64,000 bases of DNA from the NCBI GenBank assembly GCA_900539625.1, contig UQCW01000002.1, positions 74,455 to 138,454 of the forward strand. The letters are read 5' to 3'. The notes under the pieces are model-generated. The model did not search any database, was not told where the DNA came from, and was given only the letters and a program-made list of their open reading frames with translations. Source of the DNA: an uncultured Prevotella sp. Its GTDB lineage: Bacteria; Bacteroidota; Bacteroidia; Bacteroidales; Bacteroidaceae. How positions within the stretch are numbered: the first letter of the stretch is position 1; each line of letters begins with the position of its first letter. Shown here piece by piece: positions 26,327-60,521 of the stretch. The position numbers and the translations under genes are program-made.

Positions 26327-26337
26327 TGCTTTGTTAC

Positions 26338-27470: not shown

Positions 27471-27480
27471 ACTTTTTCTG

Positions 27481-29783: not shown

Positions 29784-29785
29784 TT

Positions 29786-32562: not shown

Positions 32563-32589
32563 TCTTTTCTCGTGTTTTTAGTGATACTT

Positions 32590-32814: not shown

Positions 32815-32842
32815 TCTTCTTGTATTATTCTACTATTCTTTT

Positions 32843-33595: not shown

Positions 33596-33854
33596 ATTTG
33601 ATTGTATTTATTGATTTTCAACTGTGCAGTCTTTTGCCTTCAACACAAACATACGCCACACATCAGCAAAATTATATTGTAATGCGGCCACTGCAAGAAT
33701 ATCGCTCATTCTTGGAGCTTACATTTATGCTAATTTATAATTCAAGTATGATAATCAATGAATAATCATACTTGATTCTTATTTGATGTTATATTTTCGT
33801 TCCTTCAACCTTCTCTGTTTTGCCTTTCCTTTTCTTGATACTACTTTTGTCTAC

Positions 33855-34490: not shown

Positions 34491-34494
34491 CTCA

Positions 34495-34580
34495 AGATTT
34501 TGGTGTCAGGGTGTAAATCCGCTAAAAAGATTTTGGTATTAGGCAGTATTTTGGCAAAATAAATTTTGGTATCAGGGATT
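34495..34580. repeat. Four direct copies of ATTTTGG(T/C)… short repeat (iteron/arm-site-like)
   Basis: GATTTTGGTGTCAGGG, GATTTTGGTATTAGG, TATTTTGGCAAAA and AATTTTGGTATCAGGG occur within 85 bp. Confidence 0.45.
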
Positions 34581-34658
34581 TTCCATGTGACTCAGATAGG
34601 TTTCAACTCGATTATGTGTTACTATCGAGGCGACATTTTCATACCATGCTTCCCATAA

Positions 34659-34727
34659 ATTGAAAATCTTGGGAATTTTATATTGAAAATCTTGGGAATT
34701 TTATATTGAAAATCTTGGGAATTTTGT
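34659..34727. repeat. 3 x 23-bp perfect tandem repeat ATTGAAAATCTTGGGAATTTTAT
   Basis: Three head-to-tail copies (the last has 1 mismatch) lie immediately upstream of the AAA-ATPase gene. Confidence 0.8.
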
Positions 34728-34761
34728 AATTTTGCAGAAGCAAAACGTAAATAGGCATTTT

Positions 34762-41612: not shown

Positions 41613-42473
41613 TTATCGGTTTTTGTTTTTATCCATCTCCACCAAATAGTCGTACCCAAACACAAACGTGTCCCTCTTTGCATCCCCATACAGAAAATCC
41701 TCAAAACTGGTGAATGAAGACTGAAACATCTGCCCATACAGCATATCAATCGTGTTAATATGCCAAACCATAGCATTACTATATCGCTGCTCTGTACGCT
41801 TGTCTTTCATAACAAGTGTCAGAATATAACATACAGCCTCCAATAGAAACTCATAATACGAGCAATGACTCTCTCTGTCTGGCTCAAAGTAATCCACATC
41901 TTTACAGTGTAGCCTTGCAAGTCGTTCAAGAAGATAAAAAGCATTTCCTGCCGCCTCCTCATTCTTGCCTTCTTCATATTGCTTCATAAAGACTTCAAGC
42001 AATGGAATATATGCCATAGCTGCCTTTTTACCATCATTCCACGTGCTCGGTTCTATCCAAACCTTGTCAATTTCTTCACGCATGGTTGGAGTGAACCCTA
42101 TAAAACTATAGTTCTTCCATGACTTCACCGTGCGCATAGCTGCAGGATACTTGTTCGGATGATTATACTTAATGTCTTGCAGCATATGTCCAAGTGTCTC
42201 TGCCATACACTTGGCATGCATATACCGTTCTTCATCTGTCTCACTGGCAGCATAGTCGCAACAGTCTGTGTACCATTCTTCATGCGGAAGGTCACTCTCC
42301 ACTACATATTTACGGCTATCAATAGCTTCTGACCAATAGGTCAAGTAGCGGATTAGCACGCCATGAGGCAATGCCTTCAGCTCTTCTACGACTTTCTGTA
42401 TTTTCTTGTCTACAACCAAATCGTAATAATCGCCTTCGGCGTTGTAGACGAAATCGAATGGTTCGTTATACAT
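41613..42473 (-). CDS. Hypothetical protein (downstream partner of SIR2 gene)
   Basis: 286-aa ORF, 29 bp after the SIR2-like gene. Cys/His-containing, no known motif. Confidence 0.45.
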   Translation of the reverse strand: MYNEPFDFVYNAEGDYYDLVVDKKIQKVVEELKALPHGVLIRYLTYWSEAIDSRKYVVESDLPHEEWYTDCCDYAASETDEERYMHAKCMAETLGHMLQDIKYNHPNKYPAAMRTVKSWKNYSFIGFTPTMREEIDKVWIEPSTWNDGKKAAMAYIPLLEVFMKQYEEGKNEEAAGNAFYLLERLARLHCKDVDYFEPDRESHCSYYEFLLEAVCYILTLVMKDKRTEQRYSNAMVWHINTIDMLYGQMFQSSFTSFEDFLYGDAKRDTFVFGYDYLVEMDKNKNR

Positions 42474-42502: not shown

Positions 42503-44278
42503 TCAACCAGGAATCCTGTTCTCACTGTAATACTTTTGTGCATTATCATATAACCTTTTGTATTTTTGATAATCACTTCCAAACATCCCATGTTTCAAAG
42601 GTTTCCAATTGTCCTGTACTTTTTCTGCCTCTTCAAAAAATCGCCAATATGAATTTTTTCTTAATTCTTGATAACGATAATAAGATGCAGCTCTAACAAA
42701 ATCGCCTGTTGGGAAATACTCACGACCTTCCCAACAACATCCATGTGCAACATAACTCAACGACAAGATTTGTTCCCAGATGTAAAAATAGTTTTCGAAT
42801 TCACTTTCCGCATAAAAAACATTCTTAAAGAATGGCTTTAAAGTATCCTTAAAGAAAATACTCCTTGGATAGTAATAATTCTGCTGCAAAAGTGCATTCC
42901 ACAAGTCTTTGTCCCAGTGAGTCATTCCTACAATGGATAGGAATTTTTCTGGATGTACACTTACAAAATTAAATGGTGGCACCTCCAATGACAAAATATC
43001 TTCCAACTCTTTAAATCTTTCGTATTTTACACATGCAACACCTATTGCATAGAATAGTATTTCTACAGCTAATGCATGGATATAAGATGTATTTTGGGTT
43101 TCTGTTCGACCATTTTCTAATGGACGAAGACAAAGTTTTATTAGAATATCTTTGAATATGGCTATATGCTCGGATTTTCCCCATCTTGCTGCAAGAGTAA
43201 AAGCATCAATCAATGGAGCTACCGCTTCTTTATGTATTTCTGCATATTGCTGAAATGACGTAACGGATAACGTAAAGTTGTAATAGGCATACTCTTGTAT
43301 AGTGTTATAAGCCTTCCGACCTAATGTCTCTATAAGGTCTGCATATTCAATGGAGTAATTGTCTGATGATAGAAATTTCTTTATTTTAGCAATGAACAAG
43401 TCATGACTCATGGTACGTGACACATTGACTTTTTCTAATGCTTGTACTTGCTCCAATAGAGAGGTGAACATTTCATCTGCACCTAAAATCCTTAGAAGTT
43501 CGCCATCTCGTGATTCAGATAAGTTCTGTAGTTCTTCGCTAAATTTCCCAACTTCCGCAAAGAATGATGTGTAACGAGGTCGTTGGCTTTCTGTGATAAT
43601 CTCGATGAGTCCTTTATCCCATTTGGCAGACCATCCACAGGTCACCAGTCCAAAATCCGAGAAAATCCCATGAAGATGTCCTTTCAATATCTGTGGATAA
43701 TCATCAAGTTCTTTTGTTGTGTTCCTAAACTGACAATCAAGATAGTCACCATTTACTTTTATGATTGTTGGCTCTTTGCTATGGATAATCGGTGTCGCCG
43801 TGTTCCAATCACTTTCGTTCTTAATAACTTGTGGGTGTACTCCAATCTCCTCTAAAGCATTCTCTAACAGCCTATCAAAATTCGTTGTTACCACAACTTT
43901 TACATATCCTTCTCTAATCAGATTAGCAATCGCTCTATGTGCTTTTGTAGGCAATTTCCATCCCAACTCTTTTTCATCTGTTGTTGGTTCGAAGAAATTC
44001 TGCATTAGCCGCACACGCTCTGTCGGAGTTTTCACCATTTCTTCTAATAAATCAGAATAATTGGCTTGCTTTCCATATTGTTTAAGATACCATTGATGCC
44101 AATCGTTCGTTTCTGATACGTTTTGCGTCGCAGCTATTTGCTCTATAAGTCGCTCCTCGACCTCCCATCCTGTTGGTATATGCGCTTTTCTTGATATTCC
44201 AGAACCAAGCAATAGGGCATATGCTCCTTTATTGCTATATATGGACAATGCCAATGTTGTTAGTTTCTCAATTTTCAT
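42503..44278 (-). CDS. SIR2-like (defense-type sirtuin, SIR2_2) domain protein
   Basis: N-terminus ALLLGSGISRKAHIPTGWEV… and VVTTNFDRLLE match the GxG…TTN(Y/F)D signature of defense-associated SIR2 domains. The C-terminal ~300 aa are unknown. Confidence 0.65.
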   Translation of the reverse strand: MKIEKLTTLALSIYSNKGAYALLLGSGISRKAHIPTGWEVEERLIEQIAATQNVSETNDWHQWYLKQYGKQANYSDLLEEMVKTPTERVRLMQNFFEPTTDEKELGWKLPTKAHRAIANLIREGYVKVVVTTNFDRLLENALEEIGVHPQVIKNESDWNTATPIIHSKEPTIIKVNGDYLDCQFRNTTKELDDYPQILKGHLHGIFSDFGLVTCGWSAKWDKGLIEIITESQRPRYTSFFAEVGKFSEELQNLSESRDGELLRILGADEMFTSLLEQVQALEKVNVSRTMSHDLFIAKIKKFLSSDNYSIEYADLIETLGRKAYNTIQEYAYYNFTLSVTSFQQYAEIHKEAVAPLIDAFTLAARWGKSEHIAIFKDILIKLCLRPLENGRTETQNTSYIHALAVEILFYAIGVACVKYERFKELEDILSLEVPPFNFVSVHPEKFLSIVGMTHWDKDLWNALLQQNYYYPRSIFFKDTLKPFFKNVFYAESEFENYFYIWEQILSLSYVAHGCCWEGREYFPTGDFVRAASYYRYQELRKNSYWRFFEEAEKVQDNWKPLKHGMFGSDYQKYKRLYDNAQKYYSENRIPG

Positions 44279-46275: not shown

Positions 46276-47670
46276 CTATTTTGACACATATTTTAGCATA
46301 CATTCTATTATCGCCGCAAAGTCCGTTTCATTCTCTCTTCCTGATGATTCGAATAATCCTCCTATTTCCCCTTTTCCTGTTTTTTCATCAATAACAACAT
46401 CTTGGCGGTAATATATCCCATCTTGACCTTTGGAGAAAACGGAAACACCCAATCTTTGGCATTCTTCAAATGACAATAACATATAGGGAGCAAAATAAGT
46501 AAAGAAATCTTTCGGACTTTTCTGATAAACATTTCGAGCTATATTTTTCATACTGTCATCTGTCCATCCCAACCGTCTCATAACAGACAAAACTCTAAGC
46601 ATTACTGTACACAACACTATCGTATGCCCATTATAATCAACCGTTATACTGTCTTGTTTCTTTTCTTCTGTTATAATCACATGTACAACATCACGGATTG
46701 TTTTACTGTAAAAGTAGTCTTTTCCTATAAGGTCTCGTAATAGAGGAACAGGACATTCTGTAATAACGGCTAATTGTTCAAATATGTATTTTGTACGTTC
46801 CTCTTGAAGCGAGTAGTTGAATGGTATGCTTGACAGGAACTTGCCAATATATCCGCTGAAGTCTGTTTCTCTACCATAGAAATGTTTGAATATTTTTCTC
46901 ACATTTGAATAATCACATACAAGAACTATATTATCAAGATTGAATTTGTTACCAACAAGTGTGCAATCAGGCTTTACGAAACACTTGTAACAATAGTCAA
47001 TATGAGCAGAAAACACATTGAGTATTCTAAATAGATGTGCAGGATCTATCCTATCCAAATCTTCTACGACAAGAACAACTTCTTTATGGGTACGTTGCTT
47101 GTAATTTCCAATTGACCTCTTAATAATAGCTGTTATAATGTCATCCTCATAAATGGTTTTGTTGTCAACCTTACTAAGAAAGTCGTCTAAGAGGGCATTT
47201 TCGTCATAATTCACTTTGAACTTTTCAAATTTGACTTTCATGTCCTTAAACAGTTTCAATGACTTCATACAACTCATTATTAACGGCTTGTATTCATTGG
47301 GAACCGCAATGGCAGACAAGTAAGAAAGCAAATCTGAAAGTAAAGACTTACCATTGTTTTGGAGATAAAACCATAAGGCTATATCGTTAGGAACAACGAC
47401 TTGGTCACTTATCATACTATTCAACATCAACTGAAACAATATGTCCCGTTTGATTAGACTGAATATGTCCTCATTTGATGCGACTTGATAGTTGACTGGG
47501 TATATGGTAAGAAACATGAAGTGTTCACTGACAAAATCTGTCTTTTTATATTTGTCCAAGAAATAGGATTTTCCGTCACCAAACTTTGATGAAAGTATCG
47601 TTCTTGGATTTACCTTCATATGCTCAAAGAACCCTTTTATTGCACTGTCTATTGGTATGACAAAATCCAT
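46276..47670 (-). CDS. KAP-family-like P-loop NTPase
   Basis: Walker A KFGDGKSYFL and the KAP-characteristic Walker B VLVVEDLDRIDP. Confidence 0.55.
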   Translation of the reverse strand: MDFVIPIDSAIKGFFEHMKVNPRTILSSKFGDGKSYFLDKYKKTDFVSEHFMFLTIYPVNYQVASNEDIFSLIKRDILFQLMLNSMISDQVVVPNDIALWFYLQNNGKSLLSDLLSYLSAIAVPNEYKPLIMSCMKSLKLFKDMKVKFEKFKVNYDENALLDDFLSKVDNKTIYEDDIITAIIKRSIGNYKQRTHKEVVLVVEDLDRIDPAHLFRILNVFSAHIDYCYKCFVKPDCTLVGNKFNLDNIVLVCDYSNVRKIFKHFYGRETDFSGYIGKFLSSIPFNYSLQEERTKYIFEQLAVITECPVPLLRDLIGKDYFYSKTIRDVVHVIITEEKKQDSITVDYNGHTIVLCTVMLRVLSVMRRLGWTDDSMKNIARNVYQKSPKDFFTYFAPYMLLSFEECQRLGVSVFSKGQDGIYYRQDVVIDEKTGKGEIGGLFESSGRENETDFAAIIECMLKYVSK

Positions 47671-47901
47671 TTACTCCTCTATTTTTGATTTCACAAATGA
47701 ATAAGACTCAGCAACCTCTTCTCGTTGCCAATAACTTGAAATATCAGAAAGACTATTTCCGCAACTGCTGCTCGATATTCTCTGATTTAAGAAGTTCACA
47801 TAAACACGCCCATTGTCATTTTCCACAAAGGCAATGGAATCAGTATTTATGTATACCGGATTTCCGTTATGTTTGATGTGTAATTCTATAAAGTGTGCCA
47901 T
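47671..47901 (-). CDS. Small hypothetical protein (76 aa)
   Basis: Its start is 17 bp after the stop of the 1034-aa gene, and its stop abuts the KAP-like gene start. Confidence 0.35.
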   Translation of the reverse strand: MAHFIELHIKHNGNPVYINTDSIAFVENDNGRVYVNFLNQRISSSSCGNSLSDISSYWQREEVAESYSFVKSKIEE

Positions 47902-47917: not shown

Positions 47918-50900
47918 TCATTTACCTAAATTGCGCTTCGCAATAGCCACTTCTGGTGTGTCCAACAATTTCATTCCTGTAATAGAACCATATTCAGCTA
48001 ACTTGTCATGCGACAATTCGTGATTATAGACATAGTTACGAACGCGAGCATTTATTAATCTGAGAATTACAGGATTATTCTTATAGGTTTTCACCATTGC
48101 TCTCAAATCATTGGCTCTCATAGTTCCATAATATGTATTAATAGTGAAAGAGATGATGGCAGCAGCTGGAGTACCGATTTTTTCAGCTACCTTTTCATAG
48201 ATTTCTGGCATTCCTGTTCCGCCAGTTCCTACCGATAAAGATAATCTTGCAAATGAAAACAGGCAGAATTTCATCAAAACCATTTGAAGCAAACGATTTA
48301 GACGTTCTTGGATTTTCTTTTCATTTGTTCCCTTTATCAAGTTCGGATTCTTTGTTATCTCCTCAACAAAAGATTTCCTGTCATCTTCGATTATCTTGGT
48401 AATAAAAGATAATGAGCGGAATGTCGCGTAATATGCATCTTCAATCAACCCCATCAATTCGTCCTTTCGGAGCGTGTCACGTTGATTCTTTACGATTTGC
48501 CCCATTATTTGTGTCACAAATAGTGAGTTCCTGAAATCTATCAGATCTTGATTTTGCTCATATTCTTCATTGTCTGGCAGTGCTTCAGCAGAACTTGCCT
48601 TTCGTATCGCCATGTCTTCCTTATCATGGGCGGCCAAACGTTTGTATCTTTCCTTCCTGTAATCTACACCCTCTCTCAAGACATCTTCTTTAAAGGAATT
48701 AACCAAGTCAGCCAAACGACTATATAATTTATCATCTGTATTAAGAGTAATAGGGTCCAATTTCTCGAAAGGCAACCAACTGATAAATTTTATTTCTGTA
48801 AGGAGTGTGTCACTATTGTCCAAATAAGCAAGGAATAATAATATGTTGGCATTGTTTTCTTTATGCAGTGAATTGCAGAGTTCTTTTACTTCCCTTTCAC
48901 CTTCTTCCGTGTTAATGATTCGAGACAACTTTAATGCAGTTAGATAGAAAAACAAATATTTATATGAGAATTGGTAAACTTTATCCTCTTGTTCCTTAAT
49001 AATAGCGGATTCTTTCAACTTGGCTAAGAATGTTTCTTTAGTCGCAACAACATTTCTTTCTTTAGAGTATTCTGCATAAAAGTCATTATAGTTTACAGCA
49101 TCTTTTATGTCACATTCTGCAAACGAACTTACTTTCTTCTTGTACATTTCGTAAGACAATTCCGACAAGAACATACTATATCCATCTAATTTACCTTGTT
49201 GAACCCCAGATCTAATAAGAGATGCAAACAATAGACTTTGATATAATGCAGCGTATGAAGTTGGCGAGACATCAAAAGTATTAACACCTGTGTCGATATT
49301 TTGCAACAGCGTAAGCAAGAATATTGGATTTGACGGCAACAACTGTTTGCCTAATATGTTTGCGACTTGATCATAAGCTGTTTTTACTGCTTCTGCCAAC
49401 TTGTTATTGTCAACGGTATATATATCAGAGCCTAACATTATCCATCTTTCTATCAACAGATTACGCTTTACATATCCAAGAGAATGTACAGAATAATATA
49501 TCACATCCATATTGTCAGCAGTAGACAAGAATCCCCTAATATCTATATTCTCTGATGTAGTAATTATAACCTTGTCATAAACTTTCAATAATGATGAGAT
49601 AAGTTCCTTCATTCCCGATTTATTGAGAGAAGACTTATCCATATTATCTATAAAGACAATTCGTTTTGACCTTTCAATGGTATAATACTCTTGAAATTTC
49701 TTTTTGGATTTGTCATATTGATTGTCATACGCTCTGTTCAATAAATGCTTGATGTTGACCTTCGTGATATCTTTTCCATGAAGCAATATTGGATAGATTG
49801 AGCGATGATAGCATTGAGATATGAGCATCTTTAGCAATGCTGTTTTCCCACACTGGCTTTCTCCTTCCAAGATTATCACTTTCGTCGCTTCGTTATACGA
49901 AAAAATTTCCTTTGAGTCTATATATGTATAAACCCTGTCATCATCTACGTTTCCATTCAATGGTTCCAAATCAGGATATACATATATATCATCCAATAAC
50001 AGAGGGTCTTTACGTGGATGCTTAATTGGAGCATCCAAGCTATGAAGATATGTATAAAATTGCTCTGTAAAGTCAAAAGAATGACCATGATAAGTAATCG
50101 GAACATTCTTTTCTGCAATAGGTAGGCAAACATCTTTCTTTGCGTCAATAGAAATTGTATATAATACAGCATTTGTTAAATCCGTATCATCAAATACAAG
50201 AACAGAAAAGGATTGTTCTTCACCCTGTTGCAAAGAATCATTCTCTAAATATAAAATTGCAGCTCTATTGTCCAAATCCGAAATTTGCTTTCCACGATGT
50301 TGATGTTCGTGACCACACATCAATATTTGCGATTGCTTTTGAATGTGCTCACTAAATAAATGGTTGTTATTTTTCGTTCCGCGTGTTGCTAACCAACCTG
50401 TCTTGTGGTGAAAAACGGATATGACAATATCATTTCTTCCATTGTCATCATTGTACGTTATGAAATTTGCTTCTGGAACAATTAGGCTTTGTGGTTGTTC
50501 ATTTATGGTGGACAATAAAGCTGTATTATAGCAATGAAATATCAGAGAACTGTTATTGTTGATTTTTATTTGTTTCTCGTAAGAAATTCGATTCAGGTGT
50601 TCTTCTTCACTTAATTCAGCATAAAATTTCCAAAACTCATATTGAGGTTTCAGGGCCTCGCTTTCATATTCATTACGTTTAAAAGCTCCATTATCCAAGA
50701 CATCTTTTAGTACGAAGTCACGAAAAGGCACATCCATTCCAAAATCCAAGTCGTGATTACCTGGAACAAAAACGTACTCCCAAGAGTCAAACTTTCTCTC
50801 CTTTTCAATTTCATTCTTGAAATCTTGAAACATTTTCTTCGCAAATTGGTAGTTTGCGACATTCCCTTTATCAACGATGTCTCCAGTGACAACGACTGCC

Positions 50901-51022
50901 ACTTTTGAACACTCATTTAGAATAGAAGCAGTGGCACGTGCAAGATTTCTTGATTTTTCCACAATATAGTCTGTTCCCGATGTTATGTGAAGATCAGACA
51001 TTTGAATAACTGCTAATTTCAT
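47918..51022 (-). CDS. Calcineurin-like metallophosphoesterase – STAND-type P-loop NTPase fusion protein
   Basis: The N-terminal 290 aa carry the full metallophosphoesterase motif set: SDLHI, VVTGDIVDKG, GNHD, FHHK, CGHEHQH. These are followed by Walker A GESQCGKTALL and Walker B RIVFIDNMD, then ~550 aa of helical C-terminal region. Confidence 0.65.
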   Translation of the reverse strand: MKLAVIQMSDLHITSGTDYIVEKSRNLARATASILNECSKVAVVVTGDIVDKGNVANYQFAKKMFQDFKNEIEKERKFDSWEYVFVPGNHDLDFGMDVPFRDFVLKDVLDNGAFKRNEYESEALKPQYEFWKFYAELSEEEHLNRISYEKQIKINNNSSLIFHCYNTALLSTINEQPQSLIVPEANFITYNDDNGRNDIVISVFHHKTGWLATRGTKNNNHLFSEHIQKQSQILMCGHEHQHRGKQISDLDNRAAILYLENDSLQQGEEQSFSVLVFDDTDLTNAVLYTISIDAKKDVCLPIAEKNVPITYHGHSFDFTEQFYTYLHSLDAPIKHPRKDPLLLDDIYVYPDLEPLNGNVDDDRVYTYIDSKEIFSYNEATKVIILEGESQCGKTALLKMLISQCYHRSIYPILLHGKDITKVNIKHLLNRAYDNQYDKSKKKFQEYYTIERSKRIVFIDNMDKSSLNKSGMKELISSLLKVYDKVIITTSENIDIRGFLSTADNMDVIYYSVHSLGYVKRNLLIERWIMLGSDIYTVDNNKLAEAVKTAYDQVANILGKQLLPSNPIFLLTLLQNIDTGVNTFDVSPTSYAALYQSLLFASLIRSGVQQGKLDGYSMFLSELSYEMYKKKVSSFAECDIKDAVNYNDFYAEYSKERNVVATKETFLAKLKESAIIKEQEDKVYQFSYKYLFFYLTALKLSRIINTEEGEREVKELCNSLHKENNANILLFLAYLDNSDTLLTEIKFISWLPFEKLDPITLNTDDKLYSRLADLVNSFKEDVLREGVDYRKERYKRLAAHDKEDMAIRKASSAEALPDNEEYEQNQDLIDFRNSLFVTQIMGQIVKNQRDTLRKDELMGLIEDAYYATFRSLSFITKIIEDDRKSFVEEITKNPNLIKGTNEKKIQERLNRLLQMVLMKFCLFSFARLSLSVGTGGTGMPEIYEKVAEKIGTPAAAIISFTINTYYGTMRANDLRAMVKTYKNNPVILRLINARVRNYVYNHELSHDKLAEYGSITGMKLLDTPEVAIAKRNLGK

Positions 51023-51044
51023 ACGTTACAATTATTTCTTGATA

Positions 51045-51491
51045 CTATCCTTTATACGCCCCATCCTTTGCTTCAAATATCACACTCGGCTCTATCACTT
51101 CCACCGTGTGCCATGCCCCTTTTGGTATCTGACATCCATACTTTGCCTCCGCTGGGCAAAGATGAATGCGTTGCACCTCACGATACTCTACTTTCCGTAT
51201 TACATCCTGCGTATCTATACCCATAGGCAGGGCTTCAGATGCAGCATTCTCGTATGTCACTACCTCCTCATATATAATTTCATCCATTTTTCCACACAAG
51301 CAAACAACTGTTTCTGTCGTGTTCTCATGCCTGTGGATAGGCACAACCGTACCAGGAAGTAATGCATTTAAGATACGCTGACTATTATCAGCCGAAGATG
51401 TACGCAAATCAAAACTCTGACGTAATCTTGGGTTTATTGTGGCTTGCTCAAAGAGCTTACCTAAAAAGTCTTTATCAAATTCCATAGTCAT
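51045..51491 (-). CDS. wbuC: WbuC-family cupin-fold protein
   Basis: 148 aa with a cupin His cluster (…VVPIHRHENTTE…); terminal gene of the polysaccharide locus. Confidence 0.55.
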   Translation of the reverse strand: MTMEFDKDFLGKLFEQATINPRLRQSFDLRTSSADNSQRILNALLPGTVVPIHRHENTTETVVCLCGKMDEIIYEEVVTYENAASEALPMGIDTQDVIRKVEYREVQRIHLCPAEAKYGCQIPKGAWHTVEVIEPSVIFEAKDGAYKG

Positions 51492-51570
51492 TAATCATTT
51501 GGTAGGTGATGTGCCTTTCTTGGCACGAACAAATATTTGCAGAATTGCCAAACAGCATATAGTAATCTTC

Positions 51571-52209
51571 TCATCGTTCTGTGACAATAACCTTGAATGT
51601 CTCGAAGATTAGCTTTACATCATACCAGAACGAGCTATTCTTCACATACTCCAAGTACAGCTTTATCTTCTCCTGCATAATCACATGGATATAGTAATCC
51701 TCAGGATCCTCAGCCTTTTCCATCAGTTCGTTCTCGTTGCGGAACTTGATGCTGGCAGGGTCGGTGATTCCTGGACGAACATCCAATACGTGCATCTGTT
51801 CGAGTGTCCAGTAATTCACATAGTGACGCACTTCAGGACGAGGACCAACCAAACTCATATCTCCAATAAACACGTTTATAAGCTGGGGGAGTTCATCAAA
51901 CTTATATTTACGGATATAATATCCCGAACGGGTCACACGAGGATCACGACCACCAATGGTTACTAAAGAACCCTTATCTGCTCCTACACGCATAGATCGG
52001 AATTTGAATATTCTGAAATCCTTATTTCCACGTCCCACACGCACTTGTCTATAAAACACGGGACCTTTAGAATCAAATTTGATCCAAATAGCCAATATTA
52101 TAAACAATGGGCTTAAAACTATTAATCCACAACCAGATGCAACTATGTCAAATAATCTTTTCATACTTTTAGGGTAAGAAAAACCTGAAGATAAAGATAT
52201 TGTCTTCAT
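51571..52209 (-). CDS. Initiating sugar-1-phosphate transferase (bacterial sugar transferase family, PglC/WbaP C-terminal type)
   Basis: One N-terminal TM helix, then …FYRQVRVGRGNKDFRIFKFRSM…DELPQLINVFIGDMSLVGPRP, the conserved PF02397 core. Confidence 0.8.
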   Translation of the reverse strand: MKTISLSSGFSYPKSMKRLFDIVASGCGLIVLSPLFIILAIWIKFDSKGPVFYRQVRVGRGNKDFRIFKFRSMRVGADKGSLVTIGGRDPRVTRSGYYIRKYKFDELPQLINVFIGDMSLVGPRPEVRHYVNYWTLEQMHVLDVRPGITDPASIKFRNENELMEKAEDPEDYYIHVIMQEKIKLYLEYVKNSSFWYDVKLIFETFKVIVTER

Positions 52210-52233
52210 CTCCAGGCCTTTGATAATTAATGA

Positions 52234-53523
52234 TTACAATTCAGATACTATCTCTACGAAATTCTCTATCACATACTCCAAATCCTCGTCTGTCATCTTT
52301 GTGTTCAACGGCAGAGTAACCTCATTAACAAACATATTATAAGCGTTAGGAAAATCTTTAATGTCGAAGCCCAACTTCTTATAGGCCGTCATCATGGGTA
52401 GTGGTTTGTAGTGAACATTTGTAGCAATGCCACGTTCCGCCATCTTTTCTATCACCTTGTTTGTTTCCTCACGAGTCTTACCCAACAGACGAACCAAATA
52501 CAAGTGTCCCGATGAAGTATGCTCCTCGTCATAATGGTTCAGCACAGCCACGTTCAAGGGTTTCAAAGCCTCATCATAACGCTCAATCATCTTGCGTCTG
52601 TGCTCCAGCATACCCTTATAACGTTGCATCTGCACCAGTCCGATAGCAGCCACCACGTCAGTCATATTACATTTATACCAAGTGCCAATGATGTCATACT
52701 CCCAAGCACCCAGCTTAGTCTTAGCCAGAGCATCCTTGTTCTGTCCATGCAGACTCAACAGCTGTACCTTACGATAAAGATTCTCATTCCAAGTCTCTCC
52801 CTCAATCTCAGGCACACCACTAAATGTATTATCCACATTCTTGTCCAAGTCCTTCACCACCTTCTCATTACCGAAAGGCAGATTCCACGACAAGGCACCA
52901 CCCTCAGCAGTTGTGAAATTCTTCACAGCATGGAACGAGAAAGACGAGAAGTCGGCAATTGCTCCCACCATCTTTCCCTTGCGTGATGCACCAAAGGCAT
53001 GTGCGGCATCACAGCAAATGGCAACACGTCCAAGCATCTTCTGCAAGTCGGTCTTAGGAGTAAACATCTCCTTCTTGCCTTCCACGATACTATACAGTCT
53101 GTCGTAGTCGCAAGGAATACCAGCCAAGTCAACTGGAATGATAGCCTTAGTATTAGGAGTGATAGCCTTCTCCACAGCCTCATAGTCCATTTCAAGGCAA
53201 TCCTTCTGCACATCCACAAACACTAACTTGGCACCCACATGCTCCACAATAGAAGCACTTGCTGTATATGTATAGGCAGGCACAATCACCTCGTCGCCCT
53301 CACCAACGCCCAACAGTCTAAGAGCCATTTCACCACAAGCAGTTTGCGAGTTAAGGCATACAGCCTTTTGCACACCCACAAACTCAGCAACTTCTTTCTC
53401 TAACTTTTTTGTGCGTGGTCCAGTTGTAATCCAACCAGACAAAATAGCATCACGCACTTCTGCAGCCTCAGCCTCCGTCATATCAGGCGGAGAGAAAGGC
53501 ACATTACGCAATTTCATTGTCAT
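52234..53523 (-). CDS. DegT/DnrJ/EryC1/StrS-family PLP-dependent sugar aminotransferase
   Basis: The motifs and length (429 aa) fit the family; the conserved PLP-lysine region SFSFHAVKNFTTAEGGAL is present. Confidence 0.8.
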   Translation of the reverse strand: MTMKLRNVPFSPPDMTEAEAAEVRDAILSGWITTGPRTKKLEKEVAEFVGVQKAVCLNSQTACGEMALRLLGVGEGDEVIVPAYTYTASASIVEHVGAKLVFVDVQKDCLEMDYEAVEKAITPNTKAIIPVDLAGIPCDYDRLYSIVEGKKEMFTPKTDLQKMLGRVAICCDAAHAFGASRKGKMVGAIADFSSFSFHAVKNFTTAEGGALSWNLPFGNEKVVKDLDKNVDNTFSGVPEIEGETWNENLYRKVQLLSLHGQNKDALAKTKLGAWEYDIIGTWYKCNMTDVVAAIGLVQMQRYKGMLEHRRKMIERYDEALKPLNVAVLNHYDEEHTSSGHLYLVRLLGKTREETNKVIEKMAERGIATNVHYKPLPMMTAYKKLGFDIKDFPNAYNMFVNEVTLPLNTKMTDEDLEYVIENFVEIVSEL

Positions 53524-53756
53524 AATATGATTATAAAATGTTTAATTGATTAAATTATTTATTTAGATAAGTTCAATTCTACTATCTTTATTGCTGAAAT
53601 TCAGCACTTTACAGATGGGCAAGAAAATACTTCATCCAAACCTCCATAAGGTTTGAGTGTAAATAAAATTTATGAGTAATTTATGGATAATTTATGGAAA
53701 TTCGTGTTTAAAAATGACACGATAGTCTATTGTAAAGGCGGTAAATATTATAATGT

Positions 53757-54857
53757 CTATTTACGATTCCACACACTCTTTTTTCCCCACTTCCAATTCA
53801 CCCAAGAGCGAATTCTCAACAAGAATCCCATTAAGTGATTTTCTTTGCTATACACCAACTGATACTTCCAACGGTTCTTGAAGTATCGTTTTATCTTACT
53901 TGGCAAAGAATGTACATCCACAGATGTTGGATTTAGAATTTCAGCTAATATCCGTTCTTCTATATCCTTATACCTTGGCCAGTCAGGGAAACAATCAGAA
54001 GGAATACCAATATGGTCCATACATATTCCATTCAAGCAGCATAGGAATTTGAAATAACCTCCTTCAATAGCCAATGCCTTAATCTTCTCCCAATCTATCT
54101 GATTAGTATCAGAGTTAAGGTTTGCATTTTTCACCACCAAAGCATAGTCAACTATTTGCCTTAGATTAGCTCCACCATACACAAAGTGTCCAGCAAAATG
54201 TAAGGGTAAAAAAACAACATTAAACATTGTAGAAGGTAACCAACATCCAGATTCCTCATCAAGATGAAGATTTCTTTCAAGGTCATCCTTTAAGAACTCT
54301 TCCACCTTCAATAGCGAGAGGTGTTCTTGCTCACAAATCATAGAAGCGTGGTTCTCTACGTGAAAGCCATTAATGCTATATACACTATGCTTTTCCTCAT
54401 TCTGTTTTACTTCAATGCCCTTCTCCTTTATCAGTTCATCAGCATACTGCCCTTTTCCACAGAAGTAAACATCCAAATCACCACTCCCTCGATGTTTAGG
54501 AATAGGATATAACTTCGACAGACCATATCCCTTCATCAACACCATCTTCAAGCCATGTTTAGAGAAGAAGGAAGCAAGTTCTTTTATGAACACCTTTTGA
54601 CGTTCATACTCTTTCTCTAACGTCATCACACTGCCAATCCACTTTATCAATACATTTCGTGGTGGCATAGCCCCATTAGATTTTAATTTATCAAGAGCAT
54701 CTAAACATAATCCAAGAACCGATTGCTGTCCTGCTATCCGCATCAGCTTAAACCAATCGTTTTCGGATAGTGAAGAAAATAAAGTTGAATCTGTAGGTTG
54801 AGTGTTTAGACTATAATGTAGGAGTAATAAAATACGTTTACGATTCATTTGTATCAT
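53757..54857 (-). CDS. Uncharacterised nucleotidyltransferase-fold protein (polysaccharide-locus type)
   Basis: HRGSGDLDVYF is a nucleotidyltransferase hG[GS]…D.D motif. ATG at 54857 overlaps the GT2 stop as ATGA. The ORF-track start 54956 is TTG and would overlap the GT2 gene by 100 bp. Confidence 0.5.
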   Translation of the reverse strand: MIQMNRKRILLLLHYSLNTQPTDSTLFSSLSENDWFKLMRIAGQQSVLGLCLDALDKLKSNGAMPPRNVLIKWIGSVMTLEKEYERQKVFIKELASFFSKHGLKMVLMKGYGLSKLYPIPKHRGSGDLDVYFCGKGQYADELIKEKGIEVKQNEEKHSVYSINGFHVENHASMICEQEHLSLLKVEEFLKDDLERNLHLDEESGCWLPSTMFNVVFLPLHFAGHFVYGGANLRQIVDYALVVKNANLNSDTNQIDWEKIKALAIEGGYFKFLCCLNGICMDHIGIPSDCFPDWPRYKDIEERILAEILNPTSVDVHSLPSKIKRYFKNRWKYQLVYSKENHLMGFLLRIRSWVNWKWGKKSVWNRK

Positions 54858-55846
54858 TTCAATCTTCTTCCAGTGAAGAAACCTACTATCGTACCCCATC
54901 CATACGAGATATGCACACAGAAGAACATCAAGAACAATGGTAACAGATATTTCCAACCATGTTTTTTAGCTGCCATTACTGAAGCCAATAAGTCACATGC
55001 AAAATACAAGCACAAACAGGCTAATAATGCAAAGAAGAAAGGCAACCATACGAATGACAAAAAGACACCACATATAATACCTATTACGAACAATAGAGGC
55101 ACAAGATGACGTAAACCTATAGATTCTCTGTCTACATAAAACAAATGACCGATAGATTCACCATTGGCATACATCTGCTTGCAAGATGTGCGTAAAGTGG
55201 GACGAGCATAATAAGAACTCACAATCTCAGGGTCAAAGTATACTTTATATCCAGCTTTGCGAATACGAGAATTGTATTCGTTATCTTCTGCACGAGGAAG
55301 ATCTTCACGCATACCTCCTACATTATTAAACACAGTACGAGGGAATGCACCAAACGGAACAGAGTCAACATAGTCTGGTTTCATTCCTACACGAAAAGCA
55401 GAACCTCCTATACCAAAGCGAGAATAGTTCAAAATGGCATTAGTTTTCGCCCATAACGTTTCCTTAAAAGGCAGAATTATACAACGACCACCCACGTTGC
55501 CTCTTTCACTATCAGTTTCCAATCCTTTGATACACTTTTCTATATAATCATTATTATATAATGCGTGTGCATCCAAACGTACAATATAAGGTGCATCAGA
55601 TGACTTCACACCGATATTAAAGGCTATTGATTGTATTCTACCTGGATTATTGAGGAATCGTATATTCTGATATTTACGTTTATACTCCTCCACTATATTC
55701 TTTGTTCTATCCTTACTTCCACCATCAACCACCATCACATCCATATCATTAAACGGATAAGACTGAGCAATAACGGAATCAAGACAACGGGCTATAAACT
55801 TCTCCTCGTTTAAGGTAGGGATAACTACTGCTACTTTATAATTCAT
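54854..55846 (-). CDS. Family 2 glycosyltransferase with C-terminal membrane helices
   Basis: N-terminus VVIPTLNEEKFIARCLDSVIAQSY…; DxD-like RAEDNEY; hydrophobic C-terminus. Confidence 0.75.
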   Translation of the reverse strand: MNYKVAVVIPTLNEEKFIARCLDSVIAQSYPFNDMDVMVVDGGSKDRTKNIVEEYKRKYQNIRFLNNPGRIQSIAFNIGVKSSDAPYIVRLDAHALYNNDYIEKCIKGLETDSERGNVGGRCIILPFKETLWAKTNAILNYSRFGIGGSAFRVGMKPDYVDSVPFGAFPRTVFNNVGGMREDLPRAEDNEYNSRIRKAGYKVYFDPEIVSSYYARPTLRTSCKQMYANGESIGHLFYVDRESIGLRHLVPLLFVIGIICGVFLSFVWLPFFFALLACLCLYFACDLLASVMAAKKHGWKYLLPLFLMFFCVHISYGWGTIVGFFTGRRLK

Positions 55847-55849
55847 ATA

Positions 55850-57040
55850 TCAACGTTTTCCTAATAATAATCTGATTTTATGCTGTAAACTCACTGGTAT
55901 GGAACTCCAAATCAAGTATGACAATTTGAAATCGTGTTTCTTCCAATACTGATTAACTTCTGCCCAGTTCATTCTCTTTCTCCATTCAGAAAGGATAACA
56001 CTACGTTTATCAGTATGCCTTGACGGATGATTCAGTGGCTCATTACCGTCTTTTATATCTTCATACGATACAGTATATTGCTCTATACCACAAGAGTCAA
56101 CAACTGTTTTTCCTCTATCCGAATTGACTAAAAGACAGGATACACCTTTCTCTATATCTATTTTTTCTTTTAAATCTGCCCTTCTTCCTACAACGCCCCA
56201 AAAGTCACCAATAGTGATATCTGCACCACGTTCAGGTTTTGCATAAGGACATTCATAGCAGGAGTCTCTATAAGTCTCACCCTCGAGGAAATAAGTCATA
56301 TACGAAGACAAACGATGATTTATCTTCTTTACACTACCGTTTTTATAGACTATCAAATTGTTGAAAGTCCAACCCTGGCCTTTATCCCTGAATAAGAAGT
56401 CCTTTATTGAGGCTTTATTGTAAAGTGTCAACGAGGAATGAAACATCTTAACATTAGGAACACCATGACAGATTACCTCAATAGTTAGCAGATTCTCATT
56501 ACTCTTTGTATATCTCTTAACAGCAGCCACTTGGCAAGGAGTTCCTGAAAAGAGAACTTTTCTTCCTGACTTTAGAGCATCTTTTACCGATTTATAAATG
56601 CCATTTGTATCACTTTGAACATATTTCGACCCATACATTCTACGCAACTCTTTGACATTGTCTGTAAGAATATGACGTGGATTAAGGTCTGCATCGATAA
56701 TACAACCTGCAACCATCCAGCCTTTAGAAATAAGATACTCTGCTATAGCTGCAAATACTCCACCAGACGATGACATTTTTATTTTATCCTTATCCGAACG
56801 AACAGCAGCAGAAGTTGATATTGGAGCTGTCGTTTCTGTCGGATGCACTATTACACATTGTTTTGAGCACAACCCACAATCAATGCAATTAGAATCGTCA
56901 ATAATAGGTCTTTTATATCCAAGAGAATCCTCAGACATCGTTATGCATCCTTTTGGGCACACATTTTCGCATAACCCACAACCTGAACATTCTTTGCTTT
57001 CAAAATCTGTTACTCTTTGTTTTTCGAAAACCTTTTTCAT
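55850..57040 (-). CDS. FrhB-like (coenzyme F420 hydrogenase/dehydrogenase beta-subunit family) oxidoreductase with N-terminal 2x[4Fe-4S] ferredoxin domain
   Basis: CSGCGLCENVCP and CIDCGLCSKQC cluster motifs. It directly precedes a pyruvyl-transferase gene, a recognised pairing. Confidence 0.65.
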   Translation of the reverse strand: MKKVFEKQRVTDFESKECSGCGLCENVCPKGCITMSEDSLGYKRPIIDDSNCIDCGLCSKQCVIVHPTETTAPISTSAAVRSDKDKIKMSSSGGVFAAIAEYLISKGWMVAGCIIDADLNPRHILTDNVKELRRMYGSKYVQSDTNGIYKSVKDALKSGRKVLFSGTPCQVAAVKRYTKSNENLLTIEVICHGVPNVKMFHSSLTLYNKASIKDFLFRDKGQGWTFNNLIVYKNGSVKKINHRLSSYMTYFLEGETYRDSCYECPYAKPERGADITIGDFWGVVGRRADLKEKIDIEKGVSCLLVNSDRGKTVVDSCGIEQYTVSYEDIKDGNEPLNHPSRHTDKRSVILSEWRKRMNWAEVNQYWKKHDFKLSYLIWSSIPVSLQHKIRLLLGKR

Positions 57041-57067
57041 TATAATGGTTTTATTTTTTTTATTCCA

Positions 57068-58207
57068 TCATTTTTTACGACAAGACATTACAGACTCTTG
57101 TAAATACCTCTTTGCTATTTCTCTTTCAGCAGTTAGTATCTCATCAGAATGTGTAAAGTCTAAGTTTATCTCTGTATTTGCTTCTTCACTTGGTTCATAC
57201 CTCTCCATCAGTCCAACTTTCTTCAATAAAGAGATCACACGGCTACTCTGCGAATGTGCGGCACCATAATTTCTATCAAATACAAAGAAAGGAGTATGCA
57301 AGTTTATTGAGAAGGCTGTACCGTGAAAAGAGTCTGTAACAACAGCTACAGCATTATCTACCAAACTTAGAAACTCAAGTGGACCTGTTGGCACTACGTT
57401 TGTGGCATAACTCATATCCTCATGTTCATAAGGAATGGCAATAACGTCACATTGGTATTTCTTTTTGAGATTGTTTATACAACACTTTGCTTGTCGAGAT
57501 GGAGCATCAAGGAAATATGCTAATATGTATTTATTATTTTGATTCTGTATCTCAAGCTTTTTTCTCCATGTCTCTCCATTCAGCAATAGTGTTGGATCAA
57601 GAAGATGTAGAGCTTCTCTACCACACAGTTCCTTTATTAACTTTACGCCACTATCCTCTCTAACAGAAAGGTGTTTTACCTCTGAAATCCACTTTCTTAG
57701 TTTCTTCTCGTTATATTTTGCCACAAAGTCATGTCCCATACTTGTGGCAAATGATATACGTTTATCTTTTGGAGCAAATCTAAGATAATACATAGGGTCT
57801 ACATAAAGCGTTGTTGGATCCCACAGTTGGTCACTTCCTGCAACACAAGCAACAGAATCCTTTGCCTCCTTTTGCAACTCCGACCATCCCATTCTCTTCG
57901 GTTGTAGATATTTATCTTCAAAATCAGAGAACCTTTTTACTGAATCACCTATCAAGGTTTTCTGATATGAGCTTTTGTATGCTTTTAGAGTTTTTGTATC
58001 AACCGTAAGCAACGTTCTCCATAGTATCGTGAATAATTTACCCAATCTTATATCACGTCCTTTAACTATGCTTTTTCTTGCAACCAATTCACACTCACAT
58101 CCCAATTCTTCTATTATGGATTTTGTTGCAAACGTCTGCAATGACGACCCGTAATTATAACCAGAAAAAAGGGTTGTTAATAATATCTTGTTCATCGTAT
58201 ATTTCAT
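57068..58207 (-). CDS. Polysaccharide pyruvyl transferase
   Basis: GSDQLWDP motif (PS_pyruv_trans family). Confidence 0.75.
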   Translation of the reverse strand: MKYTMNKILLTTLFSGYNYGSSLQTFATKSIIEELGCECELVARKSIVKGRDIRLGKLFTILWRTLLTVDTKTLKAYKSSYQKTLIGDSVKRFSDFEDKYLQPKRMGWSELQKEAKDSVACVAGSDQLWDPTTLYVDPMYYLRFAPKDKRISFATSMGHDFVAKYNEKKLRKWISEVKHLSVREDSGVKLIKELCGREALHLLDPTLLLNGETWRKKLEIQNQNNKYILAYFLDAPSRQAKCCINNLKKKYQCDVIAIPYEHEDMSYATNVVPTGPLEFLSLVDNAVAVVTDSFHGTAFSINLHTPFFVFDRNYGAAHSQSSRVISLLKKVGLMERYEPSEEANTEINLDFTHSDEILTAEREIAKRYLQESVMSCRKK

Positions 58208-58486
58208 TATAAATCCTCTAAAGTAATATCAGGAGCATAAGTTGTTTCTATTTTATTTCCATACAACAAGAAGCCATCAATATGTGCGAATTCTTTTAGA
58301 TCAAACTCGGCATCACCCCAAAACTGATTGGCCCATTATTGTGTATGTTCTTTGGTTATCGGATTCCGTTATCATTACGATAATCCTTTATGGTTTCATC
58401 GATGTCTTCTATTAAGCTCTTCATTTTATAACTTTATTATGTTTGCATGCAATTAAGGGCTTAACAGAGAGACTTATATCTGAATG

Positions 58487-59278
58487 TTAACGAAGCGTCC
58501 CTAATAATCTTGTTATAAAAAAAAACAACGAATATTTTTGAGGCTTTTTCAAATAAATTGAGATGTAGGCTCTTATCATACTCATTTTATTTGAAATTAT
58601 TTCTCTTTTTGTCTTACCTCTTGTATAAGCACTATTATCTCTGTATCTACGGTAATAGGTAGCATCTTTAGATGTAAAAGCGACCTTCTTTATTTTATCT
58701 GATATTAAGAACATAAACAAGCTATCTTCTCCATTCTTAAATCTCACGTCGTACCTCCTATCATGTATGAAGCTCATTGGAATGAGCTTCATACATGGTC
58801 CGGAAAAATATTTCCGGACCATGGATGATAATTTTTTACATTTGTGTTTACAAATATATTCATATGCTTTTGTTATACTATATGGCAATTGTTTTTCAAT
58901 ATGTCCATCATTGAAAGCATAAGGATAGCACAACGAAACAGTATCAGGAGTCGCCTTTTCATATAATTCTTTCAGATATGCAGTGGAAATAAGGTCATCA
59001 TCATCAATGAACGTCACATATTCTCCTCTTGCATTGTCAAGTGCTATATTGCGAGCATTAGAAACTCCGCCCGTTTCTGTCTGAAAGAACTGTACGTTCA
59101 GATCTTTGTGTTTTGAAAGCCAATCTAATATTTGGGTATTATATGGCTCATTGCAACCATTTAAAACAAGCACAAGTTCATAATCTGACTTTGGTAATAT
59201 TTGATTGTATATAGAATCAAGACACTCCCATAAATATACCTGAGGTTTATAAGTAGGAACTATAACTGAAATCTTCAT
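58487..59278 (-). CDS. Family 2 glycosyltransferase
   Basis: N-terminus MKISVIVPTYKPQVYLWECLDSIYNQ and DDD motif (FIDDDDLI). Confidence 0.75.
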   Translation of the reverse strand: MKISVIVPTYKPQVYLWECLDSIYNQILPKSDYELVLVLNGCNEPYNTQILDWLSKHKDLNVQFFQTETGGVSNARNIALDNARGEYVTFIDDDDLISTAYLKELYEKATPDTVSLCYPYAFNDGHIEKQLPYSITKAYEYICKHKCKKLSSMVRKYFSGPCMKLIPMSFIHDRRYDVRFKNGEDSLFMFLISDKIKKVAFTSKDATYYRRYRDNSAYTRGKTKREIISNKMSMIRAYISIYLKKPQKYSLFFFITRLLGTLR

Positions 59279-59287
59279 ATATTGTTT

Positions 59288-60505
59288 TTATTGATAAGAT
59301 TGTATCATTTTGATTACACGTTCCATTTGGATTTTGGAATTCTTTTTTTCAATTATGAACCGTCTTCCTGATTCCGAACGTTTTTCACGAATATCCTTAT
59401 CTATGTGAATAACGTTAGAAATACATTCAGCAAATGCGTCCACACTTTCATCTTTTGGAGTATATACATAATCGTAATATTCTTCAGGAATGCCGGGCAA
59501 ACGATTAATTATAACACTTCGCCCTGCAAGTAGATATTCCATTGTTTTTGATGGAAATGAATATCTTGTATATTTCCCTTCACTAGTTCGAGGATTTACG
59601 AGAATTGTTGCTTTATGCTGCATCTCAAGAGCAGTCTTGCTATCCACTAGTCCGAAGAACTTTATACGCGAATCTTTTCTTGCCGCTTCTTCAATTGCTT
59701 CTTCAGAGTCTCCAGACCCGCATATCCACAATTCTACATTTTTATCATGAACCATTCTGAAAGCATTAACAAGATTCATAACGCCAAATATCTTGCGAAG
59801 TGTTCCAGTATAGAGTATAACTTCCTTATTTGTTACTATTGGAACCTGTTTCATATCCATTGTTGAGACATCGACAATCCCCTCCATTACTATGTGTTTG
59901 ACTGGTTTGGAAACATAATCCATCATAGCCTCTGTTAGCAATACTAGGCCATTGCTATTTGCAGTATACTCCATAACCTTGAAATCTCTTTTTGCTAATA
60001 GGTAAGCTTTAATAGGATTTTGTTTATCCATAGCTGTTACCATTGATGGTATATCTGGAATAATGACCGTTTTTGTGAAACGTTTTTTTGTTTTCCTTTC
60101 TGCCATTCTAACAGCGTCAAACAATCGAATATCAGGAGTGTTAATTATAATATGCAAGTCATCTCCTACAAATGAGTTCGTAGCTTTTACAATCAAACGA
60201 GCGCATGAACGAGCTGCACATTTTTCTTTTATGCCCACAAGATTACAAAAACCCGCTGAATCAATATGGGTATTTTTATAATCATAACTTTCCGGTTTCG
60301 TGTATAAATTCTTATTATTATGAGGATAAGAATAAACGCCTGGGATCGTAATACATTTCAAATCTATTCCTTCTTGTTGACAAAGTCCATTAAGTATTGA
60401 CATCTCAAAGTTATGATTTGACATTCCCATTTTCACTTTACAATCTTCGTTTATTGTTCTCAATAAAGTTTGAGGGAAGAATTTTCCTAAATAAATGATA
60501 TTCAT
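59288..60505 (-). CDS. Family 4 (GT-B, group 1) glycosyltransferase
   Basis: C-terminal EX7E-type region …EGKYTRYSFPSKTMEYLLAGRSVII…. Confidence 0.7.
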   Translation of the reverse strand: MNIIYLGKFFPQTLLRTINEDCKVKMGMSNHNFEMSILNGLCQQEGIDLKCITIPGVYSYPHNNKNLYTKPESYDYKNTHIDSAGFCNLVGIKEKCAARSCARLIVKATNSFVGDDLHIIINTPDIRLFDAVRMAERKTKKRFTKTVIIPDIPSMVTAMDKQNPIKAYLLAKRDFKVMEYTANSNGLVLLTEAMMDYVSKPVKHIVMEGIVDVSTMDMKQVPIVTNKEVILYTGTLRKIFGVMNLVNAFRMVHDKNVELWICGSGDSEEAIEEAARKDSRIKFFGLVDSKTALEMQHKATILVNPRTSEGKYTRYSFPSKTMEYLLAGRSVIINRLPGIPEEYYDYVYTPKDESVDAFAECISNVIHIDKDIREKRSESGRRFIIEKKNSKIQMERVIKMIQSYQ

Positions 60506-60521
60506 ATATTATAATATTTTT

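Follow-up and report, generated by a model that had tools for sequence, protein, structure and literature searches.

The antiviral STAND proteins Avs1-5, which Gao et al. are said to have described in 2022, reportedly have a tripartite effector-NTPase-sensor build in a single gene, with modular effectors. Calcineurin-like phosphoesterases have been listed among the N-terminal enzymatic effectors of bacterial NACHT proteins (Kibby et al. 2022), and a protein of this composition, DS-8, belongs to the "DefensePredictor discovered systems" (DeWeirdt, Mahoney & Laub, Science 2026, PMC13092281). DS-8 is one E. coli protein (WP_032203427.1, 1014 aa) with metallophosphatase and NACHT domains; HHpred relates it to SMPDL3B and HHblits to bNACHT01 (99.8% probability, Table S8 of PMC13092281). 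Cloned into MG1655, this single-gene system lowers phage plating, with a drop in the efficiency of plating of about 2 log for SECphi17 in the primary screen, and defense is lost in the D52A and N84A mutants of the phosphatase and the K375A mutant of the NTPase (PMC13092281). Here we analyze a gene in a 64,000-nucleotide stretch of an uncultured Prevotella sp. (assembly GCA_900539625.1, contig UQCW01000002.1, positions 74,455 to 138,454), which we call the window. The gene, at 47918-51022 on the minus strand, translates as an intact, uninterrupted open reading frame (ORF) of 1034 codons with an ATG start. On balance, and with moderate confidence, we read its product as an anti-phage immune receptor that works alone and belongs to the DS-8 family, with an NLR-like NTPase, a metallophosphatase effector, and a HEAT-like solenoid as sensor.

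The window protein matches the NCBIfam equivalog model NF053861 ("DS8_antiphage") in one collinear stretch, its residues 7-1011 aligning with positions 1-988 of the 994 in the profile, with an E value of 3.1e-224. Direct comparison with DS-8 covers its first 399 of 1014 residues, as given in Table S8 of PMC13092281; within this part, BLASTP yields a collinear alignment over 372 residues with 25% identity (E 1e-19), in which D48, N89, and K393 of the window protein align with D52, N84, and K375 of DS-8. The two proteins have in common that each is the product of a single gene of about 1000 aa, that metallophosphatase, NACHT NTPase, and helical C-terminus follow each other in the same order, and that both carry the essential Asp, Asn, and Walker A Lys. 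E. coli DS-8 is itself outlying in its family: of the 360 members that match it at E<=1e-5, the best reaches only 27-30% identity. DS-8 is not among the best 120 matches of two word-index searches, it was not present on the plasmids or phages searched, and blastn of complete E. coli genomes with the DNA of the closest homologue returned no match. A first-pass annotation, made from the sequence and without tools, had taken a calcineurin-type effector to be undescribed among such proteins. This view is out of date given the listing by Kibby et al., the validation of DS-8, and the existence of NF053861; the gene is real and probably functional, and its architecture is not new.

The same annotation had recognized a full metallophosphoesterase motif set fused to a Walker A/B NTPase and a helical C-terminus, and each of these elements can be located by coordinate (Table 1). 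All five metal-binding motifs of the calcineurin superfamily are present. The motif set, the NTPase, and the helical C-terminus are real and far beyond chance, since the protein has 294 homologues in the word index and 1312 representatives at E<=1e-30. In the family alignment, which holds 64 Bacteroidota homologues of 31-79% identity, residues D10, H12, D48, N89, H90, D91, H205, H206, H238, H240, G387, G392, and D459 show no variation or almost none; D48 and N89 are found in 64/64 sequences, and the position of the Walker A Lys is occupied by K in 53/64 and by R in the other 11/64. Some proteobacterial members carry Cys or Ser at this position (GEEKAGCT, GEEKAGST), with a conserved Lys three residues before. 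A P-loop without the usual Lys is an unusual variant, given that K375A abolishes DS-8 defense. In Pfam, Metallophos matches residues 5-241 (E 9e-11) and AAA/AAA_14 residues 380-500, and the nSTAND3 and nSTAND_NTPase4 matches are weak and under the cutoff. The NACHT family (PF05729) is also matched under its gathering score (17.9 bits versus a cutoff of 26.7, E 0.003), and a precomputed PF05729 match is present in some homologues.

An AlphaFold2 model computed from the alignment (mean predicted local distance difference test score [pLDDT] 83.3, predicted template modeling score [pTM] 0.75) has three parts: a metallophosphatase, a NACHT-type module, and a HEAT-like alpha-solenoid that makes the C-terminus all-helical. 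With Foldseek against the PDB, the NTPase core matches the NACHT modules of NLRC4, NOD2, NLRP3, and NAIP5 (E 5e-11 to 1e-6), and comparison of the predicted folds places this NACHT-type arrangement of nucleotide-binding, helical, and winged-helix domains nearest to NLRs. The N-terminal part matches B. subtilis YydB, SMPDL3B, GpdQ, purple acid phosphatase, and Rv0805, the closest metallophosphatase folds being purple acid phosphatase, SMPDL3B, and Rv0805. No relative of solved structure came up when the PDB was searched by sequence. SMPDL3A/B, purple acid phosphatase, GpdQ, Rv0805, and Lmo2642 are small-molecule metallophosphoesterases with 12-19% identity to the window protein, and, unlike it, none is fused to an NTPase; their substrates differ widely and therefore do not fix that of the window protein. 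Altogether, the DS-8 match, the NACHT fold, and the solenoid support the layout first proposed for this gene, that is, the N-terminal effector, NTPase, and C-terminal sensor of antiviral STAND proteins. As a side observation, Foldseek gives B. subtilis YydB as the top match for the whole model, in an integrative model of a YydD-YydB complex (9a6c_B; E 2e-11, target-normalized TM-score 0.52). There YydB is named without further description; a metallophosphoesterase that pairs with a separate partner could be a split analogue of the fusion in the window. We found no literature on the function of YydB.

In a PADLOC scan, a kind of check suggested at first reading, the only match of the protein is to PDC-S60 (residues 315-1005 against profile positions 189-872 of 906, E 4e-47); it covers the body of NTPase and sensor and leaves the N-terminal ~188 profile positions unmatched, short of a whole-profile match. 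No PADLOC Avs profile matched at E<=0.01. In searches of plasmids with tblastn, full-length metallophosphoesterase versions occur in Paenisporosarcina and Clostridium botulinum, whereas plasmid proteins with a TIR-domain annotation in Vibrio parahaemolyticus, Streptococcus, and Lactococcus align only from about residue 319 to 1007, at 24-27% identity. In the Vibrio record the match starts ~168 residues into a protein of 873 residues. The PDC-S60 and TIR relatives begin to align at residues 315-319, inside the linker between effector and NTPase, so that they share a homologous NTPase and C-terminal solenoid with the window protein and differ from it in their N-terminal 170-190 residues, a TIR domain in place of the 310-aa metallophosphatase. 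Since the TIR relatives align from about residue 319 and the metallophosphoesterase versions align over their full length, the alignments indicate one chassis of NTPase plus solenoid on which either effector, TIR or metallophosphatase, can be placed. This swap is a pattern typical of STAND immune proteins.

Other described systems share parts of this plan. The tripartite order of effector, STAND NTPase, and repeat-type sensor, deduced here from models and fold searches, is also that of Avs1-5, which differ in effector type, in sensor fold, and in profile membership. A NACHT-type nucleotide-binding domain with a helical and winged-helix core is shared with bNACHT proteins (Kibby et al. 2022/2023) and with animal NLRs (NLRC4, NOD2, NLRP3). 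The C-terminus of the window protein is a conserved HEAT-like solenoid, in contrast to leucine-rich repeats or the rapidly diversifying SNaCT domain of bNACHT01; we rejected a hypervariable sensor, as the C-terminus is the part most conserved with respect to close relatives. Phosphatase effectors do not appear in the main text of a Nature 2026 survey of STAND sensors.

The 1312 proteins at E<=1e-30 mentioned above come from an exhaustive HMMER scan over 1.84 billion representatives. The family comprises over 1300 clusters at 50% identity and is unusually uniform in architecture, with lengths of 1000-1060 residues and end-to-end collinearity in nearly all of the best 150 HMMER matches. We collected 79 loci, one genome per species, which span Bacteroidota, Verrucomicrobiota, Acidobacteriota, Proteobacteria, Bacillota, Chloroflexota, Planctomycetota, and one Thorarchaeota metagenome-assembled genome. 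When all ORFs of these loci and of the window were clustered, no neighbor family was common to more than 10 of the 79 loci, and the shared neighbors were generic and at varying distance (ABC ATPases, tyrosine recombinases, short-chain dehydrogenases/reductases, type I methyltransferases). Because no neighbor family recurs across the 79 loci, the gene is a stand-alone unit, as is DS-8.

The contexts of the homologues are typical of accessory or mobile DNA. Homologues are found as prophage cargo between lysis genes and an integrase, in a mobilizable element with relaxase, MobC, and integrases, and in an integrative element. PADLOC and Pfam scans of 142 neighbors, counted per family without a control, place type I, II, and III restriction-modification genes, integrases, and transposases among the immediate neighbors. 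Two Bacteroidales lineages have the DS-8-like gene directly downstream of a ~1040-aa Res subunit of a type III restriction system (ResIII + RE_endonuc; L003 6874-9990 and L031 6781-9900). Some copies stand alone between housekeeping genes. Such lone copies are compatible with the point made by the DefensePredictor authors that many systems lie outside defense islands (PMC13092281).

A precedent for how the effector might act comes from DS-9/PUA-Cal-HAD, in which a calcineurin-type defense effector is switched on by higher-order assembly (bioRxiv 10.64898/2026.01.15.699771). The calcineurin-CE domain of PUA-Cal, which is related to DS-9A, turns dNDP into dNMP and splits NAD+ into NMN plus AMP, with a collapse of dNTP pools; this preprint credits the "Calcineurin-CE" effector family to Nicastro et al. 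2023 (bioRxiv 10.64898/2026.01.15.699771). DS-9 differs from the window protein in that its sensor is PUA-like, a HAD partner is obligatory, and an NTPase is absent. The DS9_1 profile (DS-9A) matches residues 5-174 of the window protein with an E value of 2.7e-11, at only 43 bits versus a cutoff of 420.

For the protein in the window we propose the following scheme. In an uninfected cell, it would be a closed, inactive monomer. The solenoid would bind a cue of infection, most likely a phage protein that is conserved or a change that infection induces in the host, and nucleotide binding at the Walker A motif would then lead to oligomerization. We are fairly confident that activation proceeds by oligomerization, on the analogy of how STAND/NLR proteins such as NLRC4, Avs, and bNACHT work. 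Clustering would switch on the two-metal phosphatase, which would hydrolyze phosphoanhydride or phosphodiester bonds in free nucleotides, that is, (deoxy)nucleoside di- or triphosphates ((d)NDP/(d)NTP) or NAD+. Loss of nucleotides would starve phage replication and leave the cell arrested or killed (abortive infection). Depletion of free nucleotides as the output is put forward tentatively; we favor it because of the PUA-Cal precedent, the match to the DS-9A profile, the small-molecule phosphoesterase folds of the N-terminal domain, and the fact that the output of a single-gene system must do harm by itself.

Several points weigh against assigning the gene to a DS-8-type receptor with this output. 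The NF053861 score, 746.9 bits, lies 43 below the curated equivalog cutoff of 790; identity to the validated DS-8 is only ~25% over the compared part; and the anti-phage experiments cover E. coli DS-8 only, with a wholly different host and phages, and no Bacteroidota member. The C-terminal solenoid found no specific structural match in the fold search, so that the trigger is a guess. With regard to the output, the DS-8 authors favor a cyclic-nucleotide substrate (PMC13092281), PUA-Cal acts on dNTPs only with its HAD partner (bioRxiv 10.64898/2026.01.15.699771), which the window protein does not have, and the pairwise link to the DS-9A phosphatase is weak (E 7e-5 over 57 aa).

Owing to the below-cutoff score, we file the protein as a divergent family member and not as an NCBI equivalog. 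Its nearest species-level relative (L001) scores 715 bits. The cutoff is passed by relatives that share at most 38% identity with the window protein (Prevotella histicola 903, Arenibacter 919, Akkermansia 976, and Novimethylophilus 1203 bits), and other homologues from Bacteroidota, Verrucomicrobiota, Bacillota, and Proteobacteria score 793-1203. As judged from these comparisons, the window protein and L001 belong to a sub-clade of gut/rumen Bacteroidales that diverges within one continuous family and lies just beyond the equivalog boundary. Homology makes it highly probable that this Bacteroidales protein has defense activity, and the trigger or substrate of the sub-clade might differ from that of E. 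coli DS-8.

The strongest alternative keeps the family and the mode of activation and takes the phosphatase to be a signaling phosphodiesterase that degrades a cyclic (oligo)nucleotide or another second messenger, as the DS-8 authors proposed from the resemblance to SMPDL3A, which degrades cGAMP. However, the 79 loci contain no conserved neighboring cyclase or messenger-dependent effector and hence no obvious signal, and destruction of a signal alone would not stop a phage in a single-gene system. In addition, the sole biochemically characterized calcineurin-CE domain in defense acts on NDPs and NAD+. We consider this substrate unlikely. Less likely still is an effector that cuts phage or host DNA or RNA in the manner of Mre11/SbcD, for which the nucleases of Avs1-4 are the comparison. 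In the structural ranking of the N-terminal domain, Mre11 and SbcD come 3-6 Z units below purple acid phosphatase, SMPDL3, GpdQ, and Rv0805, and they are not among the top 50 Foldseek matches. There is also no match to Mre11 DNA-binding or SbcD profiles, and HHpred leads from DS-8 to SMPDL3B, as noted above.

Table 1. Positions in the window of the DS-8-like gene, its domains and motifs, and the neighboring genes.
Feature	Position	Strand	Basis or remark
Complete gene, DS-8-family metallophosphatase-NACHT-solenoid protein	47918..51022	-	ORF; NF053861 match; AlphaFold2 model
N-terminal calcineurin-like metallophosphatase effector domain, aa 1-310; beta-sandwich cap ~aa 257-308	50093..51022	-	
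Metallophosphatase motif I, SDLH aa 9-12 (D10, H12)	50987..50998	-	D10 and H12 in 63/64 sequences
Motif II, GDIVD aa 47-51 (D48; DS-8 D52)	50870..50884	-	Translation, alignment
Motif III, GNHD aa 88-91 (N89; DS-8 N84)	50750..50761	-	Translation, alignment
Motif IV, HH aa 205-206	50405..50410	-	Invariant 64/64
Motif V, GHEH aa 237-240 (H238, H240)	50303..50314	-	Invariant 64/64
Effector-NTPase linker, aa 311-375, conserved PIKHP...DIYVYPDLEP segment	49898..50092	-	Alignment consensus; lower pLDDT
P-loop nucleotide-binding domain of NACHT-type module, aa 376-535	49418..49897	-	
Walker A, GESQCGKT aa 387-394 (K393; DS-8 K375)	49841..49864	-	Translation, alignment
Walker B, IVFIDN aa 455-460 (D459)	49643..49660	-	D459 invariant; next residue N or D
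Helical and winged-helix part of NACHT module, aa 536-702	48917..49417	-	nSTAND_NTPase4 aa 646-694 (below cutoff); secondary structure; NLR alignments span region
C-terminal alpha-solenoid, presumed sensor, aa 703-1034	47921..48916	-	
76-aa ORF	47671-47901	-	16 nt from DS-8-like gene; abuts 464-aa gene
464-aa divergent KAP-like P-loop protein, FGDGKS and VVEDLDR motifs	46276-47670	-	Pfam KAP_NTPase E 0.077, below cutoff
HNH_5 protein, 632 aa	44268-46166	-	Pfam; overlaps SIR2 gene by 11 nt
SIR2 protein	42503-44278	-	Full-length PADLOC PDC-S65 single-gene candidate, E 2e-184
286-aa gene	41613-42473		
PDC-S01-type AAA_14/DUF4143 ATPase	34732-36027	+	PADLOC, Pfam

The neighborhood of the gene bears on a further alternative, in which the gene would be a subunit of a larger operon system together with the 76-aa gene, the KAP-like NTPase, HNH, and SIR2. 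The first-pass annotation had described a tightly packed array, and indeed these genes lie on one strand with very short gaps (Table 1); the KAP assignment, in contrast, is weak, and the neighbors are separate modules. In the locus of the 79%-identical homologue (L082/L083), wbuC is followed in the same order by the DS-8-like gene, a 76-aa gene, a 467-aa gene, a 419-aa gene, and helicases, so that the pair of small and KAP-like genes follows the DS-8-like gene there too (L082-L084). This otherwise syntenic locus has no HNH, SIR2, or 286-aa gene, and the HNH-SIR2 genes consequently look like a separate insertion. The KAP-like, HNH, and SIR2 genes of the window do not stand beside any homologue in the 79 species-level loci, and neither does the 76-aa/464-aa pair; SIR2 is a candidate system by itself, and DS-8 works as a single gene. 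The "array" of the window is thus a mosaic of independent modules, and one large operon system with KAP, HNH, and SIR2 was rejected as the neighbors do not recur; we regard a subunit role as very improbable. The 76-aa and 464-aa genes may be a separate two-gene module.

Further downstream follow unannotated genes, a ResIII helicase, and the PDC-S01-type ATPase gene. Just upstream of the latter, at 34656-34728, are three tandem 23-nt units (TATATTGAAAATCTTGGGAATTT) that may be a regulatory repeat. The region from ~20400 to 34500 contains DUF4099, Toprim, an ArdC-N/zincin/MutS_I fusion, and M23 peptidases, which are typical of a Bacteroidales conjugative or integrative element. Two of these conjugative-element genes have homologues ~10 genes away from the 39%-identical DS-8 homologue of L003, so the defense block may have its place as cargo at the end of an element of this kind. 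Searches at the island borders found no tRNA genes, Rfam families, or long repeats that mark them. The first-pass annotation had placed the gene in an AT-rich, horizontally acquired island. However, the low-GC block (~35-36%) also takes in the whole capsule locus at 51-64 kb and therefore marks no discrete island.

That capsular polysaccharide locus (51045-64000) lies upstream of the gene. Its last gene encodes a WbuC-family cupin (wbuC), and the DS-8-like gene starts 22 bp after it (gap 51023-51044). A housekeeping enzyme at the end of the capsule operon, whether SbcCD-like in repair or an LpxH-like phosphatase of lipid A or the capsule, could be read from this junction and from one JGI record that labels a homologue LpxH, but this role is scarcely credible and is effectively refuted by profile, fold, and distribution evidence: there is no LpxH or SbcD profile match, the NTPase is NACHT-type and not an SMC/ABC partner of the SbcC/Rad50 kind, the distribution is patchy over many phyla and includes plasmids, prophages, and mobile elements, a related genome carries a truncated remnant, and most homologues are not beside capsule genes.

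The remnant is found in UMGS464 (L038 9845-10492), where 614 bp at 95% DNA identity comprise the 3' end of wbuC and the first ~152 codons of the gene, followed by unrelated sequence and stop codons. It is evidence of recent loss or replacement and shows turnover at this site. Other defense genes also lie within capsule loci. The 79%-identical relative carries a complete QatABCD inside its capsule locus, between Bac_transf and DegT genes (L082 2280-6848; L083 3369-7945), and a further DS-8 homologue, followed by a 68-aa epimerase fragment, is located within a different capsule locus (L087 9001-12093).

A scan for sigma-70 promoters and terminators was uninformative in this Bacteroidales genome. 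A crude scan for the Bacteroides-type promoter pattern gave 8 matches, versus 4 expected, and none upstream of the gene, which is weak evidence. The conserved 22-bp wbuC junction in the relative, the presence of a homologue and of Qat inside capsule loci, and the lack of a promoter consensus of its own suggest a functional link between the DS-8-type gene and the capsule operon in gut Bacteroidales, although we regard this link as a long shot. If it were true, with read-through from the capsule promoter, which is often subject to phase variation and anti-termination, immunity would change in step with capsule type, which sets the adsorbing phages. Capsule loci may serve as landing pads, or defense may be co-expressed with the capsule.

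These results add to the DS-8 family a gut/rumen Bacteroidales sub-clade that is left unnamed by the NCBI model and whose genes are now annotated only as "metallophosphoesterase". They also indicate that a reading without tools recognized an NLR-like antiviral protein with a phosphatase effector, a class catalogued in 2022 and validated in 2025-26. Any tractable member of the family could show what a calcineurin-type effector destroys once the NLR-like switch fires, and the exchange of TIR for phosphatase on a common chassis provides a natural control for effector experiments. Finally, the repeated placement of such genes in or beside capsule loci of Bacteroidales hints that capsule switching and intracellular immunity are linked.

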